A DNA stretch of 64,000 nucleotides from Clostridia bacterium (GTDB taxonomy: Bacteria > Bacillota > Clostridia > Oscillospirales > CAG-272). The position numbers and the translations under genes are program-made. Numbering within the stretch: position 1 is the stretch's first letter; each line of letters opens with the position of its first letter. Below, piece after piece: positions 3,972-49,324 of the stretch. The notes under the pieces were generated by a model. That model ran no database searches, was not told where the DNA came from, and saw only the letters and a list, made by a program, of their open reading frames with translations. Where the stretch lies: NCBI GenBank assembly GCA_017517745.1, contig JAFWYJ010000009.1, positions 3,467 to 67,466 of the forward strand. Reading direction: 5' to 3'.

Positions 3972-5123
3972 ATGAAGGACAATCATTACGGAGAAATTGC
4001 GGTAATCGCGATGAGAGGCTGCGAACAGTTTACGGAGCAGGTCGATTACTATTTGAAGGATTGGCGCAAGCGCAGCGGAAACAATCAGACGTTTATTATT
4101 TCTGCCGATTGCCCCAGATTCGGTTCGGGTGAGGGTAAAGCGATCATTCACGAATCGATGAGAGGCAAGGATGTTTACATTATTTGCGACACCTTTAACT
4201 ACGGTGTTACTTACAAGATGTACGGCATGACCGTGCCGATGAGTCCCGACGATCACTTTGCCGATCTGAAGCGCGTGATCGCGGCGATCGGAGGCAAGGC
4301 TCGCAGAATCACGGTCATCATGCCCATGCTCTACGAGGGCAGACAGCACAAGCGTTCGGGCCGCGAGTCTCTGGACTGCGCGACGATGCTGCAGGAGCTG
4401 GTCTCGATGGGCGTTTCCAACATTCTCACCTTCGACGCACATGACTCCCGCATCTGCAACGCGATTCCGCTTGCAGGATTTGATAACGTCCGTCCCGCAT
4501 ACCAGATGATCAAGGCACTGGTTCGCGCCGTTCCCGACGTGCAGATCGACAAGGATCACATGGCAATCATTTCTCCCGATGAGGGCGCAATGGGCCGTTG
4601 CATGTATTACAGCTCGGTTCTCGGTCTTGACATCGGTATGTTCTACAAGAGAAGAAACTATTCGATCGTCATCAACGGCAAGAATCCCATCGAGGCACAC
4701 GAATATCTCGGTCAGGATTTGCACGGCAAGGATGCGATCGTTGTTGACGACATGATCTCTTCCGGCGAATCCATGCTCGACGTGTGCAAGCAGCTCAAGG
4801 AAAAGGGCGCCAACCGCGTCTTCTGCTTCGCAACCTTCGCGCTCTTCACCGATGGCTTCGACAAGTTTGATGCGGCATTCCGCGAGGGCGTTCTCGACCG
4901 TGTGCTGTCCACAAACCTCATCTACCGTCGTCCCGAGCTCCTCAAGAAGCCTTGGTTCGTCGAGGTCAACATGTGCAAGTACGTGGCATATCTGATCGAT
5001 ACGCTCAACGATGACGATACCATCAGCTCGCTCCTCAATCCCGTCAAGAGAATTCAGGCTTTGATGGACAAGCACCGCAGTGAGCTTGCATCGCAGATGA
5101 AAATGAACTTTGACGAGAAATAA
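3972..5123 (+). CDS. prs: ribose-phosphate pyrophosphokinase (long form)
   Basis: PRPP-binding loop AIVVDDMISSGES, plus RITVIMPMLYEGRQHKR and ILTFDAHD. The start is ambiguous between ATG 3969 and 3972. I prefer 3972 for its spacing to GGAGG at 3961-3965. Confidence 0.8.
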   Translation: MKDNHYGEIAVIAMRGCEQFTEQVDYYLKDWRKRSGNNQTFIISADCPRFGSGEGKAIIHESMRGKDVYIICDTFNYGVTYKMYGMTVPMSPDDHFADLKRVIAAIGGKARRITVIMPMLYEGRQHKRSGRESLDCATMLQELVSMGVSNILTFDAHDSRICNAIPLAGFDNVRPAYQMIKALVRAVPDVQIDKDHMAIISPDEGAMGRCMYYSSVLGLDIGMFYKRRNYSIVINGKNPIEAHEYLGQDLHGKDAIVVDDMISSGESMLDVCKQLKEKGANRVFCFATFALFTDGFDKFDAAFREGVLDRVLSTNLIYRRPELLKKPWFVEVNMCKYVAYLIDTLNDDDTISSLLNPVKRIQALMDKHRSELASQMKMNFDEK

Positions 5124-5408: not shown

Positions 5409-6878
5409 ATGCAAGAAAATAAAAGTTATCTACTTTCCGGATTGGAAAAAATCATTGATTTTGTGATCAATTTTATCATTGCATATCTCTTCCTTTGGGT
5501 TGCGAAGATTTTGTATCCGCAACAGATCACGGTCAAAAACGTGCGGATGTTTCTCATCATTTGCGTGCTCTGCCTGGTGACGCTGTTTTTCTACAATTAC
5601 TACCATGCCTATCTTCCCATGCGTACGCGCAAGCCGATCTTTTTCATCAGCCGTATTTTCTTTGTGAATCTCGCGGTTTTCGGCGTTTCAACGGCGGTGG
5701 TGGTGATTTTGCCGCAGGTTGAGGTTCGCCCCGCGCTGACCTGGCTCGCTTTGACGATGGGCGTCAGTTTTCTCGTTCTGTGCGCGAAAAAGCTTGCCAT
5801 GATCTCTGCTCTCTATAATTTGCGCACCAACCGACGTAACATCAAGTATATTTTGCTTGTGACCGACAGCCAGGAAATGGCGGATGCCTATATGGAGGAG
5901 ATCCTTGAGAACCCGCATTTCGGTTATTCCGTGATCGGCTACGTCGGAAATCTCAACGTCATCGGACTTCCGCATCTCGGCACAACGGGCGATCTTGACC
6001 GTATTCTCAAGGAATACCGTCCGGATGAGGTGGTTTTGGCGTTTGATACCGTCAGAAAAAAGCTGATCTCCAAGTATATCACCATTTGCAACAACAACTG
6101 TGCCAAGATCATGGTCGTTCCCGCCGTCTGCGGCTATTTCCGTTCCCCCCGACAGGTCACCGAGCTTGGAAATCTGCCAATCATTGACATTCGAAGCACG
6201 CCTTTGGACAGTGCGGCAAATCAATTTTCCAAGCGGCTTTTGGATATCGTCGGCTCGCTCATTTTGATCATTGTCACCTCGCCTTTGATGCTGATAACGG
6301 CAATCGGCGTGAAGCTGTCTTCTCCCGGACCGATCCTGTTCCGTCAAACGCGTGTGGGGAAGAACAACCGTGAATTCACGATGTATAAGTTTCGCTCCAT
6401 GCGTGTCAATGACTCCGAGCAGACCGGATGGTCGACCGAGGAGGATCCGCGAAAGACGCGATTCGGCGCGTTTATTCGCAAGTTTGCGCTCGACGAGCTT
6501 CCGCAGTTTTTCAACGTGCTCAAAGGAGATATGAGTCTGGTGGGACCTCGCCCCGAGGTGCCGTTTTACGTCGAAAAATTCAGAAAAGAAGTTCCGTTGT
6601 ATATGCTCAAGCACACCCTGCGTCCCGGCATCACGGGACTTGCGCAGATCAAAGGCTTGCGCGGAGATACCTCGATCCAGGCGCGCATTGACGAGGACAT
6701 CAGCTATATTGAAAACTGGAGCTTCTGGGGCGATATTCGCATCCTTCTTTTGACACCGTTCTGCGCGGTCAATCGTCACGAGAAATATGCCGAGCAGGAT
6801 GCAAAGCAAAAACAGAAAGAAGAACGCCGCGGCTCGCGTCCGCAAACCAAGGAGGAGCACGATGACGAAGAGATCTAA
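5409..6878 (+). CDS. polyprenyl-phosphate sugar phosphotransferase (WbaP/EpsB-type priming glycosyltransferase)
   Basis: Multi-TM N-terminus. The C-terminal bacterial sugar-transferase domain reads [22 protein letters not shown]...[24 protein letters not shown]...[22 protein letters not shown]. Confidence 0.85.
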
Positions 6879-7962
6879 GTTGCTCTACGTCGCCTCCACA
6901 GCATCTCATTTGAAGCGGTTTCACACGCCTTATCTCGAGGCACTCGCAAAGGATGCCGAGGTGCGGACGATGGCAACGGGGGAGAGCGTTGATTTTTCCA
7001 TTCCGTTTGACAAGCATTTTTTCAGCGTTTCCAACCTTTTGAATATTTTCAGGATCCGAAAAATTTTGAAGCGCGAGCGCTTTGATTCGGTGGTGCTCAA
7101 CACCACGCTTGCCGCTTTTTTGGTGCGGTGTGCCATGATCGGGATGCGCCGCCGACCTTACGTACTCAACGTGGTGCATGGTTATCTCTTTTCCAAGAAA
7201 CCGCGCGGACTGAAGGATCGCGTGATGCTTTGGTGCGAAAAGTTTTTGTGGCGAAAGACCGATGAGATCGCCGTGATGAATGCCGAGGATCTTGAGATCG
7301 CTCGCGAAAAACGTCTGTGCCGCGGAAGGGTTACCTTTATGCACGGTATGGGTGTGGACGGTTTTTCGGAAATTCCCGTTCCGGACGCGGATTTGCGCGC
7401 AAAATTTGCGGAGAAGGACGAGCTCCTTTGCATTTTCGTGGGAGAATTGAGTGCGCGAAAAAACCAGATCTTTTTGATTCGCGCCCTCAAACGCCTGCGC
7501 GACGCGGGAATTCCCGCCAAGCTGTTGCTGGTCGGCGAGGGTGCCGAGCGAAAAAAATTTGAAAAGGAAATTTCGAGACTTTCGCTGGAAAATGCCGTGT
7601 TTTTGACGGGAAATTGCGAGCCTGTGACGCCTTATCTTGCCATTTCCGATCTTTACGTTTCCGCAAGCCGCTCCGAGGGGCTTCCGTTTAATATCATGGA
7701 GGCAATGGCGTGCGGATTGCCGATCTTGGCGTCGGCAACCAAGGGGCAGACCGATCTTTTGGAAAAAACCGAGGCGCGTCTGTATCCGCTTGATGACGCG
7801 GATGCCTTTTGTTCTGCTCTGCATGAAGCGGTCGCACCCAAGGATCTCGGTGTCGCCGCATGTACCTATCCTTCTTTGGAAACATATCGCTTATCCGCGG
7901 TATTCGACGAAAACAAGAAGCTGCTTTCTGCTTCTCTCGATCAGGAAAGGAATCGCTCATGA
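6862..7962 (+). CDS. glycosyltransferase family 4 (GT-B fold)
   Basis: ATG at 6862 follows AAGGAGG (6849-6855) and overlaps the upstream stop. The N-terminus [13 protein letters not shown] is typical. The C-terminal motif is SRSEGLPFNIMEAMACGLPILAS. Confidence 0.8.
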   Translation: MTKRSKLLYVASTASHLKRFHTPYLEALAKDAEVRTMATGESVDFSIPFDKHFFSVSNLLNIFRIRKILKRERFDSVVLNTTLAAFLVRCAMIGMRRRPYVLNVVHGYLFSKKPRGLKDRVMLWCEKFLWRKTDEIAVMNAEDLEIAREKRLCRGRVTFMHGMGVDGFSEIPVPDADLRAKFAEKDELLCIFVGELSARKNQIFLIRALKRLRDAGIPAKLLLVGEGAERKKFEKEISRLSLENAVFLTGNCEPVTPYLAISDLYVSASRSEGLPFNIMEAMACGLPILASATKGQTDLLEKTEARLYPLDDADAFCSALHEAVAPKDLGVAACTYPSLETYRLSAVFDENKKLLSASLDQERNRS

Positions 7963-9326
7963 CCGATTGCAAATCCTTATTTCGCAGCTTTTACGGCGGC
8001 GTTTATTATCCGATCTTGGTGATCTGTCTGGCATTTTTGGGACACTTCACGGGCTTTGATTTTGCTTTCATTGCGCTGATCCTGCTCTCCCTTGTTCCCG
8101 CGTTTTGGCTCTGTGAGGATGCTCGATTTGCGGTCATGCCGATTCTGAGCGTGGTTTTTACGGTTTCGGTCAAGGATTACAAATCCTACGATACGGGCTA
8201 CGAACGCTTTTTGAATCCAGAGGTGCTGATTCTTTTTGCGATGGTTGCGCTTTTGTTGATTCCTTCGCTGGTTTTATTTTTGGTGCGCCGCCGAAAGGAA
8301 TGCAACCGACTTTCTCCGACGGGGATCTGGCGCGGTTGCGCCTTGCTGGGAGCGAGTATGCTCTTCAGTGGGGCATTCAGTGCCAATTATGATTGGAAAA
8401 ATCCGCTTTTTGCAGTGCTGTTTTCGGTGGCGTTGCTCGCGGTCTACTTTTTGTTTGCTTTCTATATGCGCCATGATCGCTCGGCGGTAGATTACATGAT
8501 GTACTGCTTTTTGTTGGCGGGGATTTTGATCTGCGCGGAGCTGATCGCGGCGTATTTCACCAACGTTCGGTTCGTTGACGGGGAGATCGACAAGGGAAGC
8601 GTTGTGCTCGGATGGGGCATTTGGACGGCGATCGGCGGTATGCTTGCCTTTTTGATGCCTGCATGTTTCTATTTTGCCGCTTCTCACAAGCGCGGTTGGA
8701 TCGCATTCGGAATCGGACTTTTGGAATTTGTCTGCATTTTTCTCTCGCAAAGCCGCGGCGCTCTGCTCATTGGAGCGTTGGACTTTGGGCTGTGTATGCT
8801 CTATCTTTTGTTCAAAGGAAAGAACCGCAAACAAAACCGCATTTTCATTCTGTCCTTGGCTGTGGTTGGCGCGGTTGGATGCATTTTTCTTCGGGACAAA
8901 ATATTCACCGTTTTGCAAAATTTCCAAAGCATGGGACTTGCCGACAACGGCAGATTTGAGATCTGGAACATCGGATGGCGGAATTTTCTCAAATATCCCG
9001 TGTTTGGATCGGGTTTTTATGATTCTTTTGTCGATCCCGCCTTTGAACATTCGATTGATCCGTATTTGTATCACAACACCGTCATTCAGATGCTCGGTGC
9101 CTGCGGCTTGGTCGGCTTCTGTGCCTATTTTTATCACCGTTTGCAGACCGTTCGTTTGGTTTGCAAAAAGCCGAATCCCTGCAAGATCTTTTTGGGGATC
9201 GCGCTGTTGAGCTTTTTGCTGTTCAATTTGCTGGACGTGTTGTTTTTCAAGTTTTATCCGAGCTTTTTCTACGCGCTCATGCTGCTATGCATGGAAAAAA
9301 GCGAGATTTCGTCTGAAAAAACCTAA
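7959..9326 (+). CDS. O-antigen ligase / Wzy-like polymerase family membrane protein
   Basis: ATGA start/stop overlap with the GT4 gene. The protein is polytopic, with a Wzy_C-type loop FLSQSRGALLIGAL. Confidence 0.7.
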   Translation: MTDCKSLFRSFYGGVYYPILVICLAFLGHFTGFDFAFIALILLSLVPAFWLCEDARFAVMPILSVVFTVSVKDYKSYDTGYERFLNPEVLILFAMVALLLIPSLVLFLVRRRKECNRLSPTGIWRGCALLGASMLFSGAFSANYDWKNPLFAVLFSVALLAVYFLFAFYMRHDRSAVDYMMYCFLLAGILICAELIAAYFTNVRFVDGEIDKGSVVLGWGIWTAIGGMLAFLMPACFYFAASHKRGWIAFGIGLLEFVCIFLSQSRGALLIGALDFGLCMLYLLFKGKNRKQNRIFILSLAVVGAVGCIFLRDKIFTVLQNFQSMGLADNGRFEIWNIGWRNFLKYPVFGSGFYDSFVDPAFEHSIDPYLYHNTVIQMLGACGLVGFCAYFYHRLQTVRLVCKKPNPCKIFLGIALLSFLLFNLLDVLFFKFYPSFFYALMLLCMEKSEISSEKT

Positions 9327-10490: not shown

Positions 10491-10540
10491 ATACGCCTTG
10501 CCTTGCAAGGTATAGTGAGGTGTACTGTCGGGGAGGAAGA

Positions 10541-10661
10541 GCCTCCCTTGTGTAAAGGGAGGTGGCTTGCGAAGCAAGACGGAGGGATTGTAAAAGCAAA
10601 AATTTCATCGTAAAACAATCCCTCAGCCGCCTAACGGCGCCAGCTCTCCCAAAGGGAGAGC
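10541..10661. repeat. multi-hairpin palindromic repeat element, copy A
   Basis: GCCTCCCTTGTGTAAAGGGAGGTGGC...GACGGAGGGATTGTAAAAG...AAAACAATCCCTCAG...CAGCTCTCCCAAAGGGAGAGC. It shares its conserved cores with copy B at 40549-40672. Confidence 0.75.
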
Positions 10662-10744
10662 ATTTCTTGAAGTTCTTAACGAAATGACATTGCTCACGAG
10701 GGATTTTTCTTTATCTGAGGCGGCAGATTCATCAGAATCAAAGT

Positions 10745-37305: not shown

Positions 37306-38523
37306 ATGAAAAAAATAGAAATGAAAACACCGCTGGTCGAGATGGACGGCGACGAAATGACGAGAATCCTTTGGCAGATGATCAAGGACGAGCTGCTTTT
37401 GCCGTTCGTCGATCTGAAAACCGAATATTACGATCTCGGCTTGCCCGAGAGAGAAAAGACCAAGGACCGGGTTACCTTTGATTCGGCGTATGCCACGCAG
37501 AAATACGGCGTTGCCGTCAAGTGTGCCACCATCACGCCCAACAAGCAGCGCGTGGAGGAATATAACCTCTCCGAGATGTGGAAGAGCCCCAACGGAACCA
37601 TTCGCGCCATTCTCGACGGCACTGTGTTCCGCGCGCCGATCCTCATCGACAGCATCCGTCCCGCCGTCCGCAATTGGAAAAAGCCGATCACGATCGCGCG
37701 TCACGCTTACGGAGACATCTACAAGGCAACCGAGTACCGCGTTCCCACGGAGGGCAAAGCAGAGTTGGTTTATACCGACAAGGACGGCAAGGAGACCTTC
37801 CGTCAGACGGTTTACGATTTTGAGTGTGCCGGCGTTCTGCAGGGAAGCTACAACAAGGATTCTTCGATCCGCTCCTTCGCGCACTCCTGCTTCCAATACG
37901 CACTCAACACCAAGCAGGATCTTTGGTTCTCGACCAAGGATACCATCTCCAAGCAGTACGATCAGACCTTCAAGCTGATCTTCCAGGAGATCTATGACAA
38001 CGAATACAAGGAAGCGTTCGAGAAGGCGGGAATTACCTATTTCTACACCCTGATCGACGACGCGGTCGCGCGCGTCATCCGCAGTGAGGGCGGCTTTATC
38101 TGGGCTTGCAAGAATTACGACGGCGACGTCATGAGCGACATGGTTTCTACCGCGTTCGGATCTCTTGCCATGATGACCTCGGTTCTGGTCTCTCCCGACG
38201 GAAAGTTTGAGTACGAGGCGGCACACGGCACGGTTACGCGCCACTATTACCGCTATCTCAAGGGCGAGGAGACCTCGACCAACCCCATGGCGACGATCTA
38301 CGCATGGTCGGGCGCGCTTCGCAAGAGAGGCGAGCTTGACGGGCTGGATGAGCTGGTCAACTTTGCCGATCAGCTGGAGGCGGCGTGCATCGACACCCTC
38401 AATCAGGGAGTCATGACCAAGGACCTTGTCGGACTCGTTGTGGAGGGAACCGAGACCACCTCGGTCAATTCCCGCGATTTCATCGTTGCGATCCGCAAGA
38501 ACCTCGAAAAAAGACTTGCATAA
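37306..38523 (+). CDS. icd: NADP-dependent isocitrate dehydrogenase (about 400-aa eukaryote-like subfamily)
   Basis: [26 protein letters not shown]...KCATITPN...[11 protein letters not shown]. Confidence 0.9.
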
Positions 38524-38527
38524 AAAC

Positions 38528-38574
38528 AAAAAATCCCTGACGGTTAAGGCGCGTGTTCTTAAGGACAGTTTTTG
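38528..38574. repeat. left inverted repeat bracketing the low-GC cassette
   Basis: AAAAAATCCCTGACGGTTAAGGCGCGTGTTCTTAAGGACAGTTTTTG is the imperfect reverse complement of 40709-40754. Confidence 0.75.
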
Positions 38575-38684
38575 AAATTCAATAGAATATGTCACCTACC
38601 GACAGGAAAAGGACGAAGAGATATAAAACTCCTCGTCCTCTTTTCTTTTCAGACCCTGCATTTGTAGATACAAATACTTCTATG

Positions 38685-38713
38685 TAGACTAATTCACAAT
38701 TTTATGATATAAT
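38685..38713 (+). promoter_or_regulatory. sigma-A-like promoter of the sigma-fusion gene
   Basis: TAGACT (38685-38690), 17-nt spacer, TATAAT (38708-38713). Confidence 0.45.
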
Positions 38714-38778
38714 ATTTTTAATAATCTTGTCAGCAAACTGAGAAATGCCACACTATATGGGTGAAAGGAGGCGAGAAA

Positions 38779-40443
38779 ATGCAGGAAACGAACAAAATGC
38801 GCGATCAACTAATCAACGAGTTTGCCGAGAACTATATGGAAAAGCTGTTTTATTTCTGCTTAAAAAAGACTGGTAGCCATATTGAAGCAGAAGATTTAAC
38901 GCAGGATATCGCACTTCAGATCATCACGGCTTTGAACAAAAGCACGATCCCAACGAGTTTTTCAGCGTGGGTATGGCAGATTGCGCGTAACCGTTATTCC
39001 GTATGGGCAAAAGAAAAGCATAATCGAAACGAATCGGTAACCGGTTCCGATATCGGAGATTATGAGATCGAGGACGAAAGCGAAAATATCCTTGATGAAA
39101 TGATACATACAGAGCAAATGGCTCTGCTTCGGCGGGAGCTGGCATTCATCAAAAGTGATTATCGCAATATAGTCGTTGCCTATTACATAGAGAATAAGAG
39201 CGTTCGTGACATTGCATCATCGCTGTCACTTTCCATAAGCTCGGTTCAGCAAAGACTTCACCGTGCAAGAATCATATTGAAAGAAGGTATGAATATGGCA
39301 AGAGAATTTGGAAAATTAAGCTATAATCCCGAAAATATTGCATTTTGGGTTAATGGGTTACATGGGGCAAATGGCGCACCCAGAATTTATGTTTCGCGTT
39401 CTCTCAGCAAAAACATTATGCTTGCAGCATATAGAACACCTGCAACGGCAGAAGAACTTGCAATGGAGTTGGGAGTAGCTCTTCCGTATATGGAAGAAGA
39501 ACTATCTACACTTGTAGATGCTACATTGATGAAGAAAAATGGCAATAAATACGAAACCAACATTTTTATTGTGAGTGCGGAAGCACAAGAAAAGATTTTT
39601 GCACATGTGCGTGGGATTGCTCCTGAGCTTACAAAGGCGATTATTGACACGATGGAGTATAATATTGAGTGGTCAAACAAAAATGCACCTAATTGGCATG
39701 AAGGTTATCAAAGCTATGAGGATATGAATTGGGCGCTTCTTATGATCGAAGCTGATAACGTATCTTTTGATACCCTTAAGCCTTTTAAGAAAAACGCCAA
39801 AGATGTTCCTAATATTGGTCCATGGGGACATACTATCCGTCCTAATGGTGGCGAATGGGATTTGCTTGGTATGGAAATCCATCACGGCGATGAGCCCAAA
39901 CATGTGGGTCTTAGCGGATGTGTTTCATGCCCCAACGAAAAGGATTTGCCCGAAATTATGTTCCGTCAATTCCGCTTCAAGTATTGCGGAATTGAAAATC
40001 GCACACCACCGGTTCTTACCTATGCGGACGGGCAAGCAATGGTTGCGGTTGCCGAGGGCAAGAGCGCAGATATTGATAAATCTATTCTAAACAGATTAGA
40101 ATCTTATGGATATATCAAAAAGACTGATGATGGTTATATTCCCGCCATTATGGTTATGCGCAAAAACAAATCAAGCAAAATGCCAAAGGAGATACGAGAA
40201 CAATTTGAGGCGCTTCGCCATAAAGCAACGGAAATAGCGACTCGCCACTATTTGTTCTGCCGAGAACAGATTTATAAAGAAATTCCCGAATTCTTGAAAG
40301 AGGATGAATTTCAAATCGATCACGCTTGCGTTAACATTTTTTCAATGCGCGGCGCGGTCTTGGAAGAAGCTATCAGACAAGGCTATTTAACCTTTGACAA
40401 GGATAACAACAAACAGATGTTGGGGGCTTATTTGGTAATATAA
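38779..40443 (+). CDS. ECF-type sigma-70 family factor fused to a soluble C-terminal domain of about 380 aa with unknown function
   Basis: ATG at 38779 is 7 nt after AAAGGAGG. Region 2 is EDLTQDIALQI...FSAWVWQIARNRY. Region 4 is YRNIVVAYYIENKSVRDIASSLSLSISSVQQRLHRAR. It is 554 aa with no TM segment seen. Confidence 0.8.
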   Translation: MQETNKMRDQLINEFAENYMEKLFYFCLKKTGSHIEAEDLTQDIALQIITALNKSTIPTSFSAWVWQIARNRYSVWAKEKHNRNESVTGSDIGDYEIEDESENILDEMIHTEQMALLRRELAFIKSDYRNIVVAYYIENKSVRDIASSLSLSISSVQQRLHRARIILKEGMNMAREFGKLSYNPENIAFWVNGLHGANGAPRIYVSRSLSKNIMLAAYRTPATAEELAMELGVALPYMEEELSTLVDATLMKKNGNKYETNIFIVSAEAQEKIFAHVRGIAPELTKAIIDTMEYNIEWSNKNAPNWHEGYQSYEDMNWALLMIEADNVSFDTLKPFKKNAKDVPNIGPWGHTIRPNGGEWDLLGMEIHHGDEPKHVGLSGCVSCPNEKDLPEIMFRQFRFKYCGIENRTPPVLTYADGQAMVAVAEGKSADIDKSILNRLESYGYIKKTDDGYIPAIMVMRKNKSSKMPKEIREQFEALRHKATEIATRHYLFCREQIYKEIPEFLKEDEFQIDHACVNIFSMRGAVLEEAIRQGYLTFDKDNNKQMLGAYLVI

Positions 40444-40548
40444 ATTTTATCGCCGAGGGTAACCGTTTGGTCGCTCTCGGCGGTCTCTTTTTATTTCGCA
40501 CAACCACTTCCGGTGGTGAGTAAGTGCGCACTTACAGACAAACAAAAA

Positions 40549-40672
40549 GCCTCCTTTGTGTAAAGGGAGGTGGCACGGCAACGCCGTGACGGAGGGATTG
40601 TAAAAGTTAGATTTGACCAAAAACAATCCCTCAGTCAGCTTCGCTGACAGCTCCCTTTACACAAGGGAGCCT
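40549..40672. repeat. multi-hairpin palindromic repeat element, copy B
   Basis: GCCTCCTTTGTGTAAAGGGAGGTGGCACGGCAACGCCGTGACGGAGGGATTGTAAAAG...AAAACAATCCCTCAGTCAGCTTCGCTGACAGCTCCCTTTACACAAGGGAGCCTC. The flanks CAGACAAACAA / TTGTTTGTCT extend the palindrome. Confidence 0.75.
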
Positions 40673-40708
40673 CTGGCTGTAGTTGTTTGTCTTTCTGATA
40701 TAGTGTTA

Positions 40709-40754
40709 CAAAAACTGTCCTTTAGAACCCAAAGCCTAACCGTCGGGGATTTTT
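40709..40754. repeat. right inverted repeat bracketing the low-GC cassette
   Basis: CAAAAACTGTCCTTTAGAACCCAAAGCCTAACCGTCGGGGATTTTT pairs with 38528-38574. Confidence 0.75.
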
Positions 40755-40784: not shown

Positions 40785-40816
40785 GGAAGGCTGCGTTCGC
40801 AAGAACGCAGCCTTCC
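40785..40816 (-). terminator. terminator of pck
   Basis: Perfect 14-bp stem GGAAGGCTGCGTTC / GAACGCAGCCTTCC with loop GCAA, followed on the - strand by CTTTTC. Confidence 0.7.
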
Positions 40817-40830
40817 AAAATCTATCAGGA

Positions 40831-42615
40831 TTATTTCTTGAGATTTGCCTCGAGAATTGCCAGCTCATCGTAAAGCTCTGCGGGAACACGCTCGCCGATC
40901 TGCTTGTAGAACGCCTTGATATTCTCAACGTCCTCCAGCCAGCTTGCGTTGTCGATCGACAGCAGCTCGCGGATGGTGTCAACGGTGACGTCCTCAAGTC
41001 CCTCGATGTTGATGTCCTCAGCCTTCGGAACAAATCCGATGGGAGTCTCAACCGCATCAACCTCACCCGCGCAACGTGCGAGGATCCACATCAGAACTCT
41101 CATGTTGTCGCCGAATCCGGGCCAGATGAAGTGACCCTCGTCATCGGTGCGGAACCAGTTGACGTGGAAGATCTTGGGAGCGTTGGGGATCTTTTTGCCC
41201 ATGTTGAGCCAGTGAGCGAAGTAGTCGCCCATGTCGTAGCCAACGAAGGGACGCATTGCCATCGGATCGCGGCGAACCACACCGACTGCACCTGCTGCGG
41301 CTGCAGTGGTCTCGGAAGCCATGATCGAGCCGACGAAGGTACCGTGCTGCCAGTTGCGGGATTCGTAAACCAGCGGAGCGGTCTTTGCGCGGCGGCCGCC
41401 AAAGATGATCGCGGTCAGCGGAACACCCTTGAGGCTGTTGAACTCAGAGGAGATGCAAGGGCAGTTGGAAGCCATTGCGGTGAAACGGGAGTTGGGGTGA
41501 GCACCCGAGGTGCCAACCTTGTCTGCCTTGTCATACTTGGTGTAATCCCACTTTTCGCCTCTCCAGTTGAGCGCGTTCTTCGGAGGATTGTTGTCCAAGC
41601 CCTCCCACCAAACCGAGTTGTTGTCGAGGTCGTGGCAAACGTTGGTGAAGATGCAGTTCTTCTTGGTGGTCATCAGAGCGTTGTAGTTGGAGTGCTCGTT
41701 GGTACCGGGAGCCACGCCGAAGAAGCCGTTCTCGGGGTTGACAGCCCACAGTCTGCCGTCCTCGCCGACACGGATCCAAGCGATGTCGTCGCCGACGGTC
41801 CAAACCTTGTATCCCGCCTTCTTGTAGATTTCGGGCGGAATGAGCATTGCGAGATTGGTCTTACCGCAAGCAGAGGGGAATGCGGCAGAAATGTACTTGA
41901 CCTCGCCCTGAGGATTCTCCAGACCGAGAATGAGCATGTGCTCAGCCATCCAGCCTTCCTTACGGCCAAGGTAGGAGGCGATGCGGAGCGCGAAGCACTT
42001 CTTGCCGAGCAGAACGTTTCCGCCGTAGCCGGAGTTGACCGACCAGATGGTGTTGTCCTCGGGGAAGTGGCAGATATATCTCTTCTCCTCGTCACACTCT
42101 GCAACGGCGTGCAGACCCTTGACGAAGTCAGCGGAGTCACCCAAAGCGTCGATGACGTTCTTGCCGACTCTGGTCATGATCAGCATGTTGAGCACGACGT
42201 AGATCGAGTCGGTCAACTCAATACCGATCTTTGCAAAATCAGATCCGACAACGCCCATGGAGTAGGGGATGACGTACATGGTCTTGCCCTGATAAGAGTT
42301 CTTGTAGAGCTTGGAGAGCTTGTCATAGCACTCCTTGGGATCCATCCAGTTGTTGATGGTTCCTGCGTCCTCCTTCGTGCGGGTGCAGATGAAGGTTCTG
42401 TTCTCCACACGTGCTACGTCATTGACAGCGGTTCTGTGCAGATAGCAGTTGGGGTAGAGCTCTGCATTCAGAGGCTCCAGCTCGCCGGTCTTGCACGCTT
42501 CTGCGCGCAGAGCCTCGGTTTGCTCCTCGCTGCCGTCAATCCAAACGATCTTGTCGGGATTGACCATTTCAGCCATTTCGTTGATCCAATTCAATACAGA
42601 CTTGTTATTGGTCAT
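40831..42615 (-). CDS. pck: phosphoenolpyruvate carboxykinase (GTP)
   Basis: Start MTNNKSVLNWINEMAEMVNPDKIVWIDGS follows AAAGGAG. The kinase-1a loop is FPSACGKTNLAML. About 594 aa. Confidence 0.9.
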   Translation of the reverse strand: MTNNKSVLNWINEMAEMVNPDKIVWIDGSEEQTEALRAEACKTGELEPLNAELYPNCYLHRTAVNDVARVENRTFICTRTKEDAGTINNWMDPKECYDKLSKLYKNSYQGKTMYVIPYSMGVVGSDFAKIGIELTDSIYVVLNMLIMTRVGKNVIDALGDSADFVKGLHAVAECDEEKRYICHFPEDNTIWSVNSGYGGNVLLGKKCFALRIASYLGRKEGWMAEHMLILGLENPQGEVKYISAAFPSACGKTNLAMLIPPEIYKKAGYKVWTVGDDIAWIRVGEDGRLWAVNPENGFFGVAPGTNEHSNYNALMTTKKNCIFTNVCHDLDNNSVWWEGLDNNPPKNALNWRGEKWDYTKYDKADKVGTSGAHPNSRFTAMASNCPCISSEFNSLKGVPLTAIIFGGRRAKTAPLVYESRNWQHGTFVGSIMASETTAAAAGAVGVVRRDPMAMRPFVGYDMGDYFAHWLNMGKKIPNAPKIFHVNWFRTDDEGHFIWPGFGDNMRVLMWILARCAGEVDAVETPIGFVPKAEDINIEGLEDVTVDTIRELLSIDNASWLEDVENIKAFYKQIGERVPAELYDELAILEANLKK

Positions 42616-42891
42616 GGGTCTTTCTCCTTTATGAATAAGTAATTTTTTATTTGTTAAAATTGAGACAAAGATGACAAGCCAACTTATCACCCATTATATA
42701 TTTTACACGCTTTTTCTTTCATTTTCAAGAGACTTTTGAAAAGGTTACGATTTGTTCATAATTTTCGACAAAAATGCAAGACTAAAATCAAAAGATGAAG
42801 GAAATCCTTCAAAAAACTTGCAAAAAAGCCTTTTCAAAACCGATGTTTTATGATATAATGAGATCAGTTGCGAAGGAAGGAGGGGACGGAT

Positions 42892-43338
42892 ATGCAAAAA
42901 TTGAACACAAAAGAAAAAGCGATCATGGATGCGATCGAGGATTCGATCGCGAAAAGCGGCTTTGCCCCGAGCGTGAGAGACCTTTGCCGGATGCTGGGGT
43001 ATCGGAGCACCTCGACGGTGCAGATGTATCTGAACCGATTGGAGGACTACGGCTATATCCGCCGTGAGGACGGCAAAAGTCGTTCGATCTCCCTTTGCCG
43101 CGAAAACGCAAGGCCTTGTCGGATTCCTTTGCTGTGTGCCGATGCACCGCTCGACGCCCCGTTGTACGAGACTTTCATTGAGAAAACACTCGATTTTTGT
43201 TATTGCGGCGACCTTCCCGTCGATGCCGAGATTTTCGCGCATCATCTGCCGTCGAAGGAGACGAACGAGGTGGCTGTCGTCCTTCGCCAAAAAGGGGAAA
43301 AAGAGTTGCGCCGGCTTGCCGTCTTCATGCTCTTTTGA
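42892..43338 (+). CDS. LexA-like repressor with intact N-terminal DNA-binding domain and degenerate/truncated S24 region
   Basis: SGFAPSVRDLCRMLGYRSTSTVQMYLNRLEDYGYIRRE aligns with the LexA wHTH. It is 148 aa. It has no Ala-Gly cleavage site, no GDSM serine motif and no catalytic Lys region. Confidence 0.7.
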   Translation: MQKLNTKEKAIMDAIEDSIAKSGFAPSVRDLCRMLGYRSTSTVQMYLNRLEDYGYIRREDGKSRSISLCRENARPCRIPLLCADAPLDAPLYETFIEKTLDFCYCGDLPVDAEIFAHHLPSKETNEVAVVLRQKGEKELRRLAVFMLF

Positions 43339-43369
43339 ACGCGAAACCTTACGTTTTTTGTGGAAAAGA

Positions 43370-43408
43370 ATGGAAATGCCGAATTTGTTTGGCGTTTCCA
43401 TTTTTTTG
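43370..43408 (+). terminator. rho-independent terminator after the LexA-like gene
   Basis: ATGGAAATGCC...GGCGTTTCCAT followed by TTTTTTT. Confidence 0.65.
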
Positions 43409-49199: not shown

Positions 49200-49218
49200 G
49201 TTATCGAACAAAAATCAG

Positions 49219-49291
49219 CGTTTGCATGACTGACGGATAATGCGGGTCACCGCAGGGGAATACAAACGTTATAAAGCCGACCGTCTGGGCA
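49219..49291 (+). promoter_or_regulatory. ZTP riboswitch (pfl motif) aptamer
   Basis: P1 is CGTTTGCAT / ATACAAACG. Conserved cores are GACTGACGGA, P2 GCGG-GTCA-CCGC and GGGG. After a linker comes the 3' subdomain GCCGACCGTCTGGGCA. It lies in the leader of pflB. Confidence 0.85.
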
Positions 49292-49324
49292 ATTCAGTTT
49301 ACAAAAGCTGATTTGCCTTTTTTT
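49288..49324 (+). terminator. riboswitch expression-platform terminator
   Basis: GGCAATTCAG / CTGATTTGCC stem (9 of 10 pairs) followed by TTTTTTT. The left arm overlaps the CTGGGC pseudoknot element of the aptamer. Confidence 0.75.

Follow-up and report, generated by a model that had tools for sequence, protein, structure and literature searches.

A probable mobile sigma factor cassette in the loop of a terminator hairpin between icd and pck of a Clostridia bacterium

Introduction

Mobile insertion cassettes are short non-autonomous elements that carry terminal inverted repeats and one or a few passenger genes but encode no transposase (PMC4337579, PMC6542083, PMC2266710). Here we describe an element of comparable build, a cassette with a single sigma factor gene that lies between icd and pck within a 64,000-nucleotide stretch of a Clostridia bacterium genome (Oscillospirales, CAG-272; contig JAFWYJ010000009.1, positions 3,467 to 67,466 of the forward strand), hereafter referred to as the window. 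In their anatomy, mobile insertion cassettes, such as MIC231 of Bacillus cereus and the Tn3-type cassettes of Xanthomonas, and miniature inverted-repeat transposable elements (MITEs) are its closest counterparts: end repeats of approximately 19 bp are conserved between its copies, and it carries a sigma gene only, with no transposase. The element differs from mobile insertion cassettes in having no target-site duplication and no identified cognate insertion sequence (IS), in its landing sites within terminator loops, in its sigma factor cargo and in its own, putatively insulating, terminator.

Insertion of the IS ISRm22 takes place at the axis of a palindrome, and that of ISPa11 produces no direct repeats (PMC1525189), whilst ISPpu9 moves as modules with a small-RNA gene via circles, a modular movement of the IS110 type (PMC12288879). 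These belong to the IS elements that break repetitive extragenic palindromic (REP) sequences (ISPsy8, ISPa11, ISPpu9/10, ISRm22 and IS1397) and, like the element described here, split an extragenic palindrome so that its halves flank the insertion. The REP-breaking elements, however, encode their own transposases (IS3, IS110 and IS4/IS5 types), for which the element has no open reading frame (ORF), and target one repeated REP consensus per genome, whereas the three known targets of the element are unrelated in sequence and share only an architecture of A-run, stem-loop and T-run, the outer repeat arm at the window being confined to this locus.

Integron cassettes likewise carry a single gene without a recombinase of their own, and the abutted ends of the element form one hairpin. 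The recombination site of an integron cassette is an imperfect palindrome that is recognised as a folded hairpin and not by its sequence. Compared by eye, the element is otherwise unlike such cassettes, which carry one attC site (R''/L''...L'/R' boxes) at the 3' end, are usually promoterless and lie in intI/attI arrays; the element stands alone, its gene is preceded by a promoter, repeats occur at either end, and neither an integrase nor an array lies nearby.

A composite inverted repeat brackets the sigma factor gene

A reading of the window made from its letters alone (the sequence-only reading) had proposed a cassette bracketed by an imperfect inverted repeat at 38528-38574 and 40709-40754. 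When the left arm was aligned locally, with gaps allowed, to the reverse-complemented right arm, this was borne out by a score of 56 with 42 of 50 columns matching, against a best score of 26 among 2000 shuffled controls. Only one of 3000 equally spaced pairs of segments in the window reached 56, presumably this very locus. The arms constitute a true inverted repeat, since their alignment as direct repeats scored just 14. Their full extent is 38529-38584 and 40699-40754 (56 nt, 79% complementary), and each arm half was found at these two places only within the window.

The full element was also recovered at two further chromosomal sites in gut Clostridia of approximately 41% GC, in copies 85-88% identical to that of the window. 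One lies between a gene encoding 57 amino acids (aa) and rsmE (loci L015-20 and L126-128) and the other between pyk and a hemN-like gene (L021), so that, with icd/pck, three sites are represented, and every copy lies between convergent genes. Homology to the window spans 38558-40735 in L016, and 38657-40536 plus both ends in L021. The element occupies 38556-40727 of the window (2172 bp) and measures 2178 and 2174 bp at the other two sites.

As judged from these alignments, the repeat of approximately 46 bp is a composite, its inner 19 bp being the ends of the element and its outer 21 bp, together with an A-run or T-run, being the halves of a host terminator hairpin. These inner stretches (TTCTTAAGGACAGTTTTTG on the left, CAAAAACTGTCCTTTAGAA on the right) recur at three chromosomal sites that are otherwise unrelated, always together with the cassette, and are therefore taken as its ends; in the window the left terminal repeat occurs at 38556-74 and, inverted, at 40709-27 only. 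In alignments of the three sites, the left ends remained similar from CTWAAGGACAGTTTTTG inward and the right ends from CAAAAACTGTCCTTWAG(AA) inward, and all similarity between the sites is lost directly outside CTWAAGGACAG...CTGTCCTTWAG, giving the element a paired end motif of CTWAAGGACAGTTTTT ... AAAAACTGTCCTTWAG. The outer arms of about 21 bp, with the A-run and T-run, differ at every site and yet are mutually complementary at each; since they are site-specific, complementary and fold as a terminator-like hairpin once the element is removed, they are best read as a split host hairpin. The sequence-only reading had offered cassette ends and a hairpin split by foreign DNA as alternatives, and the two appear to hold at once, the first for the inner arm and the second for the outer.

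The element probably lies in the loop of a host hairpin at all three sites

At the window (AAAAATCCCTGACGGTTAAGGC) the flanks of the element read AAAAAATCCCTGACGGTTAAGGC on the left and GCCTAACCGTCGGGGATTTTT on the right; the corresponding flanks are AAAAAGGACGAGAA..AGCGT and ACGCT..TTCTCGTCCTTTTT in L016, and AAAAAACGCTAACC.ATATGC and GCATA.GGTTAGCGTTTTTT in L021. In each pair an A-run directly follows one stop codon and a T-run stands at the other end, which in L016 and L021 abuts the stop codon of the convergent gene. In the window, the split hairpin begins 1 nt past the icd stop codon (38521-23). When the element was deleted in silico and the flanks were joined, hairpins of -32.9 (window), -27.3 (L016) and -24.8 kcal/mol (L021) were obtained, with stems of about 20 bp, and at all three sites the junction fell in the apical loop of the rejoined hairpin. 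The uninterrupted hairpin of the window, as reconstructed, reads AAAAATCCC(T/C)GACGGTTA(A)GGC-loop-GCCTAACCGTCGGGGATTTTT.

The reading we favour, at a probability of roughly 0.7, is that of a mobile cassette with conserved ends whose insertion point was the loop of a host terminator hairpin; at the window this would make it a non-autonomous insertion cassette of 2172 bp in the apical loop of a hairpin of the bidirectional terminator type after icd. The empty site predicted for the window consists of the icd stop, AAACAAAAAATCCC(T/C)GACGGTTA(A)GGC, a short loop, GCCTAACCGTCGGGGATTTTT and the pck terminator.

Sites without the cassette were sought among relatives. At the rsmE site, L129 (RsmE 84% identical) has the gene order of L016 without the cassette, and its 47-bp spacer is one hairpin, GAAAAAACGCGCC-CAC-GGCGCGTTTTTC; L161 (90%) likewise has a single hairpin downstream of rsmE, and the closer strains L126-128 all carry the cassette, so that only these sister species are empty. 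Relatives were also inspected at icd, as the sequence-only reading had called for. In the nearest of them, L024 (93%), a single hairpin, AAAAATCCGATACG-ATATTTC-CGTATCGGATTTTT, directly follows the icd stop, although its match to the outer arms of the window was no better than that of shuffled sequences (664 of 2000 scored at least as well); a relative with icd and pck adjacent was not found, and neither the sigma gene nor pck lies beside icd in any of 80 genomes with a related icd, the relatives at 93% and 90% identity among them. The contigs that encode an identical icd protein (L022 and L023) represent the same strain, carry the cassette, break off inside the sigma gene and thus provide no empty site; icd at 100% identity is present in the ENA samples ERZ28654085 and ERZ28654271.

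Table 1. Positions of the element, its parts and the adjoining features in the window
Feature	Position	Strand	Basis and remarks
icd, isocitrate dehydrogenase	37306-38523	+	Pfam
Split icd hairpin, left half	38524-38555	+	A-run 38524-33, stem half TCCCTGACGGTTAAGGC 38534-50, loop remnant GCGTG 38551-55
Left terminal inverted repeat of the element, TTCTTAAGGACAGTTTTTG	38556-38574	+	Kept at the left end in L016/L126 and L021
Element-borne intrinsic terminator, GGACGAAGAG...CTCCTCGTCC then T-run	38604-38652	+	RNA fold -18.8 kcal/mol, z -3.7
Sigma-A-type promoter, TAGACT-17-nt spacer-TATAAT with upstream TG	38685-38713	+	Consensus scan, 10/12 matches, extended -10
Cargo gene, 554-aa sigma factor of the extracytoplasmic function (ECF) type	38779-40443	+	sigma2 and sigma4 in residues 1-175, then a C-terminal domain of ~380 aa
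Cargo gene terminator	40449-40493	+	Terminator scan; fold -24.5 kcal/mol, z -5.5
Small hairpin, CCAC-TTCCG-GTGG	40504-40516	.	Element frame
16-bp perfect palindrome, GTAAGTGCGCACTTAC	40520-40535	.	Element frame
Multi-hairpin repeat, overall palindromic	40541-40687	.	nhmmer matches on both strands; right part of frame
Right terminal inverted repeat of the element, CAAAAACTGTCCTTTAGAA	40709-40727	-	Inverted 38556-74 with 1 mismatch; kept in L016, L126, L128 and L021
Split icd hairpin, right half	40728-40754	+	Loop remnant CCCAAA, stem half GCCTAACCGTCGGGGA, T-run; complementary to 38528-38555
pck terminator	40785-40816	-	Perfect 14-bp stem then T-run; intact, context only, not part of the element
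pck, GTP-dependent phosphoenolpyruvate carboxykinase	40831-42690	-	Pfam

Composition and contents of the cassette

In windows of 300 nt, GC content was 0.35-0.45 between the arms and 0.50-0.60 in icd and pck, and GC at third codon positions (GC3) was 0.40 in the sigma gene against 0.75 in icd, 0.72 in pck and 0.73 in the aconitase gene. The compositional dip expected from the sequence-only reading is thus present, and the other features it had listed were recovered as well (Table 1): a single gene with a promoter-like site and a terminator between the repeats, the perfect palindrome and one copy of the multi-hairpin repeat inside the cassette, and the pck terminator with its 14-bp stem outside the right repeat. 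No transposase, integrase or recombinase is encoded inside, the sole long ORF being that of the sigma factor (Pfam) and all remaining ORFs comprising at most 107 aa.

Overall GC is approximately 53% for the host genome and 41-43% for the cassette at every site, 12 points below the window. Since this equals the GC content of the flanks in L016 and L021, the host represented by the window is a recipient. The earlier suggestion of a horizontally acquired regulatory cargo accordingly found support in the GC3 of 0.40 against about 0.73, in its fit to the other hosts of about 41% GC and in the absence of the gene from this position in any icd relative.

Proposed mode of insertion

Direct repeats of 2-9 bp were looked for with the boundary shifted by 0-12 nt, and none flanks the element at two or more of the three sites. 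Transposition by a staggered-cutting DDE transposase is accordingly disfavoured, although a duplication may have decayed in copies that differ by 10-15%. When the ends of the element are abutted, with the junction reading ...AAAAACTGTCCTTWAGAA/TTCTWAAGGACAGTTTTT..., they form an A5-stem-loop-stem-T5 hairpin (DNA folds of -8.5 to -14 kcal/mol, z -3.9 to -6.4) that has the same architecture as the target hairpins. The lack of a duplication, the position of the breakpoints at the tips of both palindromes and the hairpin formed by the ends suggest a loop-to-loop joining, and the nested order of the arms, host outside and element inside, favours a centre-to-centre recombination of two palindromic sites. 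Under this scheme a recombinase supplied in trans would move the element, and two hairpin or cruciform loops would be joined conservatively instead of by staggered-cut DDE transposition. We regard such a conservative mechanism as a tentative possibility only. Somewhat more doubtful still is its general form, in which a structure-recognising system would join the hairpin loop of the element ends to the loop of any bidirectional terminator hairpin without duplication; such a mode of recombination, resembling that of integron attC sites or acting at cruciform tips, is not described for terminators.

As the split hairpin could no longer terminate icd, the terminator inside the left end of the element is read as its replacement; it would block read-through from icd and insulate the cassette, and the host would gain an extra sigma factor expressed from a housekeeping-type promoter.

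Several candidates for the mode of targeting were considered and set aside. Targeting by a bridge RNA or guide RNA was rejected, as the noncoding parts of the element match their own and each other's targets alike, with longest shared words of 7-10 nt. Cores resembling those of integron attC sites (GTTA(A)GGC / GCCTAAC) occur in the window hairpin in the wrong order and are absent at L016, and are regarded as coincidence. A GTTC target of the IS91 type occurs at the left junction of the window only.

If loop targeting is enzymatic, foreign DNA could enter without damage to genes, at a site between convergent genes and with a replacement terminator supplied. Gut Clostridia would then be expected to possess an as yet undiscovered recombinase specific for hairpins or cruciforms, which could serve as a tool for safe-harbour integration. 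Were structure recognition to hold, every convergent-gene terminator would be a potential safe-harbour attachment site, and self-insulated regulatory genes such as those of sigma factors could be delivered across genera.

Points against the favoured reading and alternative explanations

Several points weigh against insertion of a mobile cassette into a hairpin loop. The outer limit of the element can be placed only to within about 6 nt. Its copies differ by 10-15%, so that insertion cannot have been recent, and any short target duplication may have been lost since. With just three sites, the apparent loop targeting could reflect the survival of harmless insertions and not the specificity of an enzyme. 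An empty site of the same allele was not found, the empty sites being those of sister species with different hairpin sequences. A terminator on the minus strand at the right end of the element is a weak possibility, its fold of -7 to -10.6 kcal/mol being no better than that of shuffled sequences. Nor was a transposase or recombinase gene with matching ends found: the end motif was absent elsewhere in the window and in the other loci fetched for comparison, genome and metagenome collections not having been searched for it; among viral contigs its 16-mer gave 22 single hits, none of them paired, with a chance expectation of roughly that or higher; and plasmid and phage records yielded nothing. 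Only 47 nt of the multi-hairpin repeat matched when the cassette DNA was compared with plasmid and phage records.

The most serious rival, although rather unlikely, holds that a DDE transposase, from an IS with the same ends elsewhere in the donor genome, moves the element, which would be a mobile insertion cassette of the ordinary kind or a large MITE; its location in hairpins would reflect survival between convergent genes, and its duplications would since have mutated. Its conserved terminal repeats, passenger gene and lack of a transposase correspond to the published definition of a mobile insertion cassette, a duplication of 2-3 bp could be lost at the divergence observed, and a MITE-like insertion of about 390 bp in L126, with a similar TTAAGGACA motif in its ends, hints at an active IS family with ends of this kind in these genomes. 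This explanation is hard to reconcile, however, with the lack of a direct repeat at any boundary choice at two of the three sites, and with all three breakpoints falling in the apical loop of a hairpin with a stem of about 20 bp and not just anywhere in the spacer; furthermore, no cognate IS was found in the window, the fetched loci, or the viral, plasmid and phage records.

It is also conceivable, but improbable, that palindromes mediated an illegitimate recombination without a dedicated enzyme, in which the host terminator and a terminator-like palindrome on a circular donor were both cut at their cruciform or hairpin tips (for instance, by a nuclease of the SbcCD type) and the ends were joined, giving centre-to-centre junctions. 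Breakpoints at the centres of both palindromes, the absence of a duplication and the terminator-like form of the abutted ends would all be accounted for, yet the same element breakpoints recur at three unrelated sites and the length is near-constant at 2172-2178 bp, which argues for a defined mobile unit and not for three accidents.

Inverted repeats around a promoter-bearing segment are a hallmark of invertons in gut bacteria, and a related sigma module in L148 and L142 lies between different inverted repeats of about 80 bp. That the repeats of the element are recombination sites at which the sigma gene is flipped is nonetheless very improbable. A single orientation was present in all recovered contigs, which were few, at both the icd site (L022 and L023) and the rsmE site (L015-20 and L126-128); flipping would change little for a gene that comes with a promoter and terminator of its own; no invertase gene lies nearby; and the site-specific outer halves of the repeat would be left unexplained. 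The least credible proposal, an old AT-rich resident gene with a chance or structural inverted repeat, can draw on the presence of the cassette in all contigs with an identical icd protein, but is opposed by the result for the 80 icd relatives, by a GC3 gap of 0.33, by the same DNA at unrelated loci elsewhere and by a repeat far above chance.

Regulatory parts of the element frame

The left internal terminator lies thirty nt inside the left end of the element. At the same position in L016 (-19.2 kcal/mol) and L021 (-26.5 kcal/mol) a hairpin followed by a U-run is present with other stem sequences, and this persistence at three sites with differing stems indicates that the structure has probably been under selection, being kept through compensatory changes. 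The window's internal terminator (38603-38650, AAAAGGACGAAGAG...CTCCTCGTCC) also shares a 10-nt word and a general likeness with the split host hairpin of L016 (5748-5762 / 7969-7983, AAAAAGGACGAGAA...TTCTCGTCC), which may be due to chance (about 0.1 expected).

The promoter call derives its support from conservation and not from the consensus scan, which is weak by itself, the region yielding 5 such sites where 4.9 were expected: the promoter region is 90-93% conserved with L016, L021 and L126, and a stretch of 38 nt recurs in L001 ahead of a sigma paralogue. The cargo terminator is kept in all homologous loci, including those without end repeats. The small hairpin and the palindrome, for which a role as a protein-binding site is conjectured, are also present in L016, in L126, where the palindrome extends to 18 bp, and in L021, where it has one mismatch, and are missing from the repeat-less copies, in which homology stops at about 40484-40493.

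The multi-hairpin repeat spans about 140 nt and recurs in the window at 10533-10673, after the terminator of an unrelated gene, with stem sequences that differ in three of the five hairpins. It looks like a member of a REP/REPIN-like family of Oscillospiraceae; searches of Rfam at gathering and permissive thresholds returned no family for it or for the frame. Its right half has further matches where GC-rich hairpins are densely packed in L163 (Vescimonas fastidiosa pMM35_01, 1490-1550) and three fecal contigs labelled 'Bacteriophage sp.'.

The MITE-like insertion of L126 (4470-4860) separates the left terminator of the cassette from the promoter. Its inverted ends, CTGACTTAATTAAAGACA / TGTCCTTAATTCAGAC, have a TTAAGGACA-like core in common with the cassette ends, and the two may belong to the same transposase family.

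The sigma factor cargo

The cargo protein matched Sigma70_r2 and Sigma70_r4_2 of Pfam above their cut-offs, with no match to r3, and TIGR02937 of NCBIfam at 82.5 bits (cut-off 42.9), and its sequence matches in the PDB were to ECF sigma factors only. It therefore has sigma2 and sigma4 and lacks sigma1.1 and sigma3, the combination by which ECF (group 4) sigma factors are defined. An AlphaFold (AF2) model built from 48 homologues had a mean predicted local distance difference test (pLDDT) score of 77 and displays two winged-helix-like modules in the C-terminal domain, each followed by long helices. Foldseek searches placed SigE, SigL, SigH and SigW at the top for the N-terminus, and gave weak matches to SelB winged-helix repeats alone for the C-terminus.

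No family of Pfam, NCBIfam, PHROG or PADLOC matched the C-terminal domain of about 380 residues, and an assignment of the cargo to an anti-phage defence family was rejected, the PADLOC matches being insignificant. A search of 1.84 billion cluster representatives nonetheless retrieved the domain in 650 clusters (50% identity). Nearly all of these are proteins of about 540 aa with the match at residues ~170-550, and this shared length and position make the fusion of sigma core and C-terminal domain a trait of the family. The domain varies far more than the sigma core; in L153, for instance, the N-terminus is near-identical and overall identity is about 50%.

In some proteins of 377 aa (P0330, P0333, P0334 and P0339), 78-83% identity to the query extends over 67-68% of its length and no sigma Pfam domain is present. 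Judged by their length, these probably correspond to the C-terminal part, and may be stand-alone C-terminal domains or the products of split genes. Similar matches of about 360-390 aa were obtained when the cluster representatives were searched with the C-terminal part.

In ECF groups such as ECF41 and ECF42, a C-terminal extension regulates the activity of the sigma factor. The cargo resembles these in that a sigma2 and sigma4 core is fused to a C-terminal domain without an adjacent anti-sigma gene, but differs in the size of its extension (about 380 aa), in the absence of a Pfam or NCBIfam family for it and in its two predicted winged-helix modules. The cassette has a single gene, and hence no adjacent anti-sigma gene, and the upstream promoter-like site is of the sigma-A and not of the ECF type, although an adjacent anti-sigma gene or an autoregulated promoter is not universal among ECF groups with C-terminal extensions. 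Since no anti-sigma gene travels along, and by analogy with the extended ECF groups, sigma activity is presumably gated by the protein's own C-terminal domain.

Distribution of the sigma gene and exchange between copies

Homologues of the sigma factor at 80-97% aa identity are common in gut metagenomes, though no contig on record encodes exactly this protein. They fall into several contexts: mobilizable elements with genes for a relaxase, TnpV, ParB or RepA_N (L013, 95% aa identity; L005, 82%), arrays of sigma paralogues with Xre-type regulators (L001, 85%; L162, 97%), and single insertions between the 57-aa gene and rsmE (L015-20, 93%) and between pyk and the hemN-like gene (L021, 89%). The mobile-element and array loci share only the promoter-gene-terminator module with the window (approximately 38685-40493) and have no end repeats.

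Identity between the copies is unevenly distributed along the gene. Positions 39300-40400 of the window, the part coding for the C-terminal domain, are 97-100% identical to the copies in L013, which adjoins relaxase and TnpV genes, and L130, both without the end repeats of the element, but 38700-39300, the sigma-core part, is just 76-89% identical to them; against L016 the corresponding values are 92-95% and 84-92%. These alignments show a recent recombination tract inside the sigma gene, involving copies borne on mobile elements. At the rsmE site, L126-128 have the same frame with a sigma gene that is just 72% identical and the extra insertion of about 390 bp. The mosaic gene, this replacement in L126-128 and the promoter and terminator held in common by tandem paralogues all indicate that the coding part is exchanged by recombination within a conserved frame.

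Whatever the mechanism of insertion, the locus attests the movement of a complete one-gene regulatory unit, comprising housekeeping-type promoter, sigma factor with C-terminal domain and terminator, between gut bacteria of very different base composition, and its continuing recombination with copies on mobilizable elements, providing a route for the exchange of transcription programmes and not of enzymes or resistance genes.

In the arrays of L001 (6001-9418) and L162 (1721-5101), tandem sigma paralogues are followed by two or three genes for Xre-type helix-turn-helix proteins, and the tandem genes of L001 reuse the same promoter and terminator sequences. The related sigma module of L148 (82% aa identity; also in L142) lies between inverted repeats at 4483-4560 / 6832-6910, which take in an entire terminator hairpin (its loop inverted) and some neighbouring sequence; downstream the repeat recurs once more in direct orientation, and the arrangement could be invertible or prone to recombination.

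Other features of the window

A second sharp dip in GC content, to 0.31, was observed at 42550-42850, directly upstream of pck. It adjoins an ORF at 42745-43401 (-) that encodes 218 aa without a Pfam match. The sole Rfam family above threshold in the window was a ZMP/ZTP riboswitch (pfl motif) at 49216-49297 (+), which scored 62.3 bits against a gathering score of 39.

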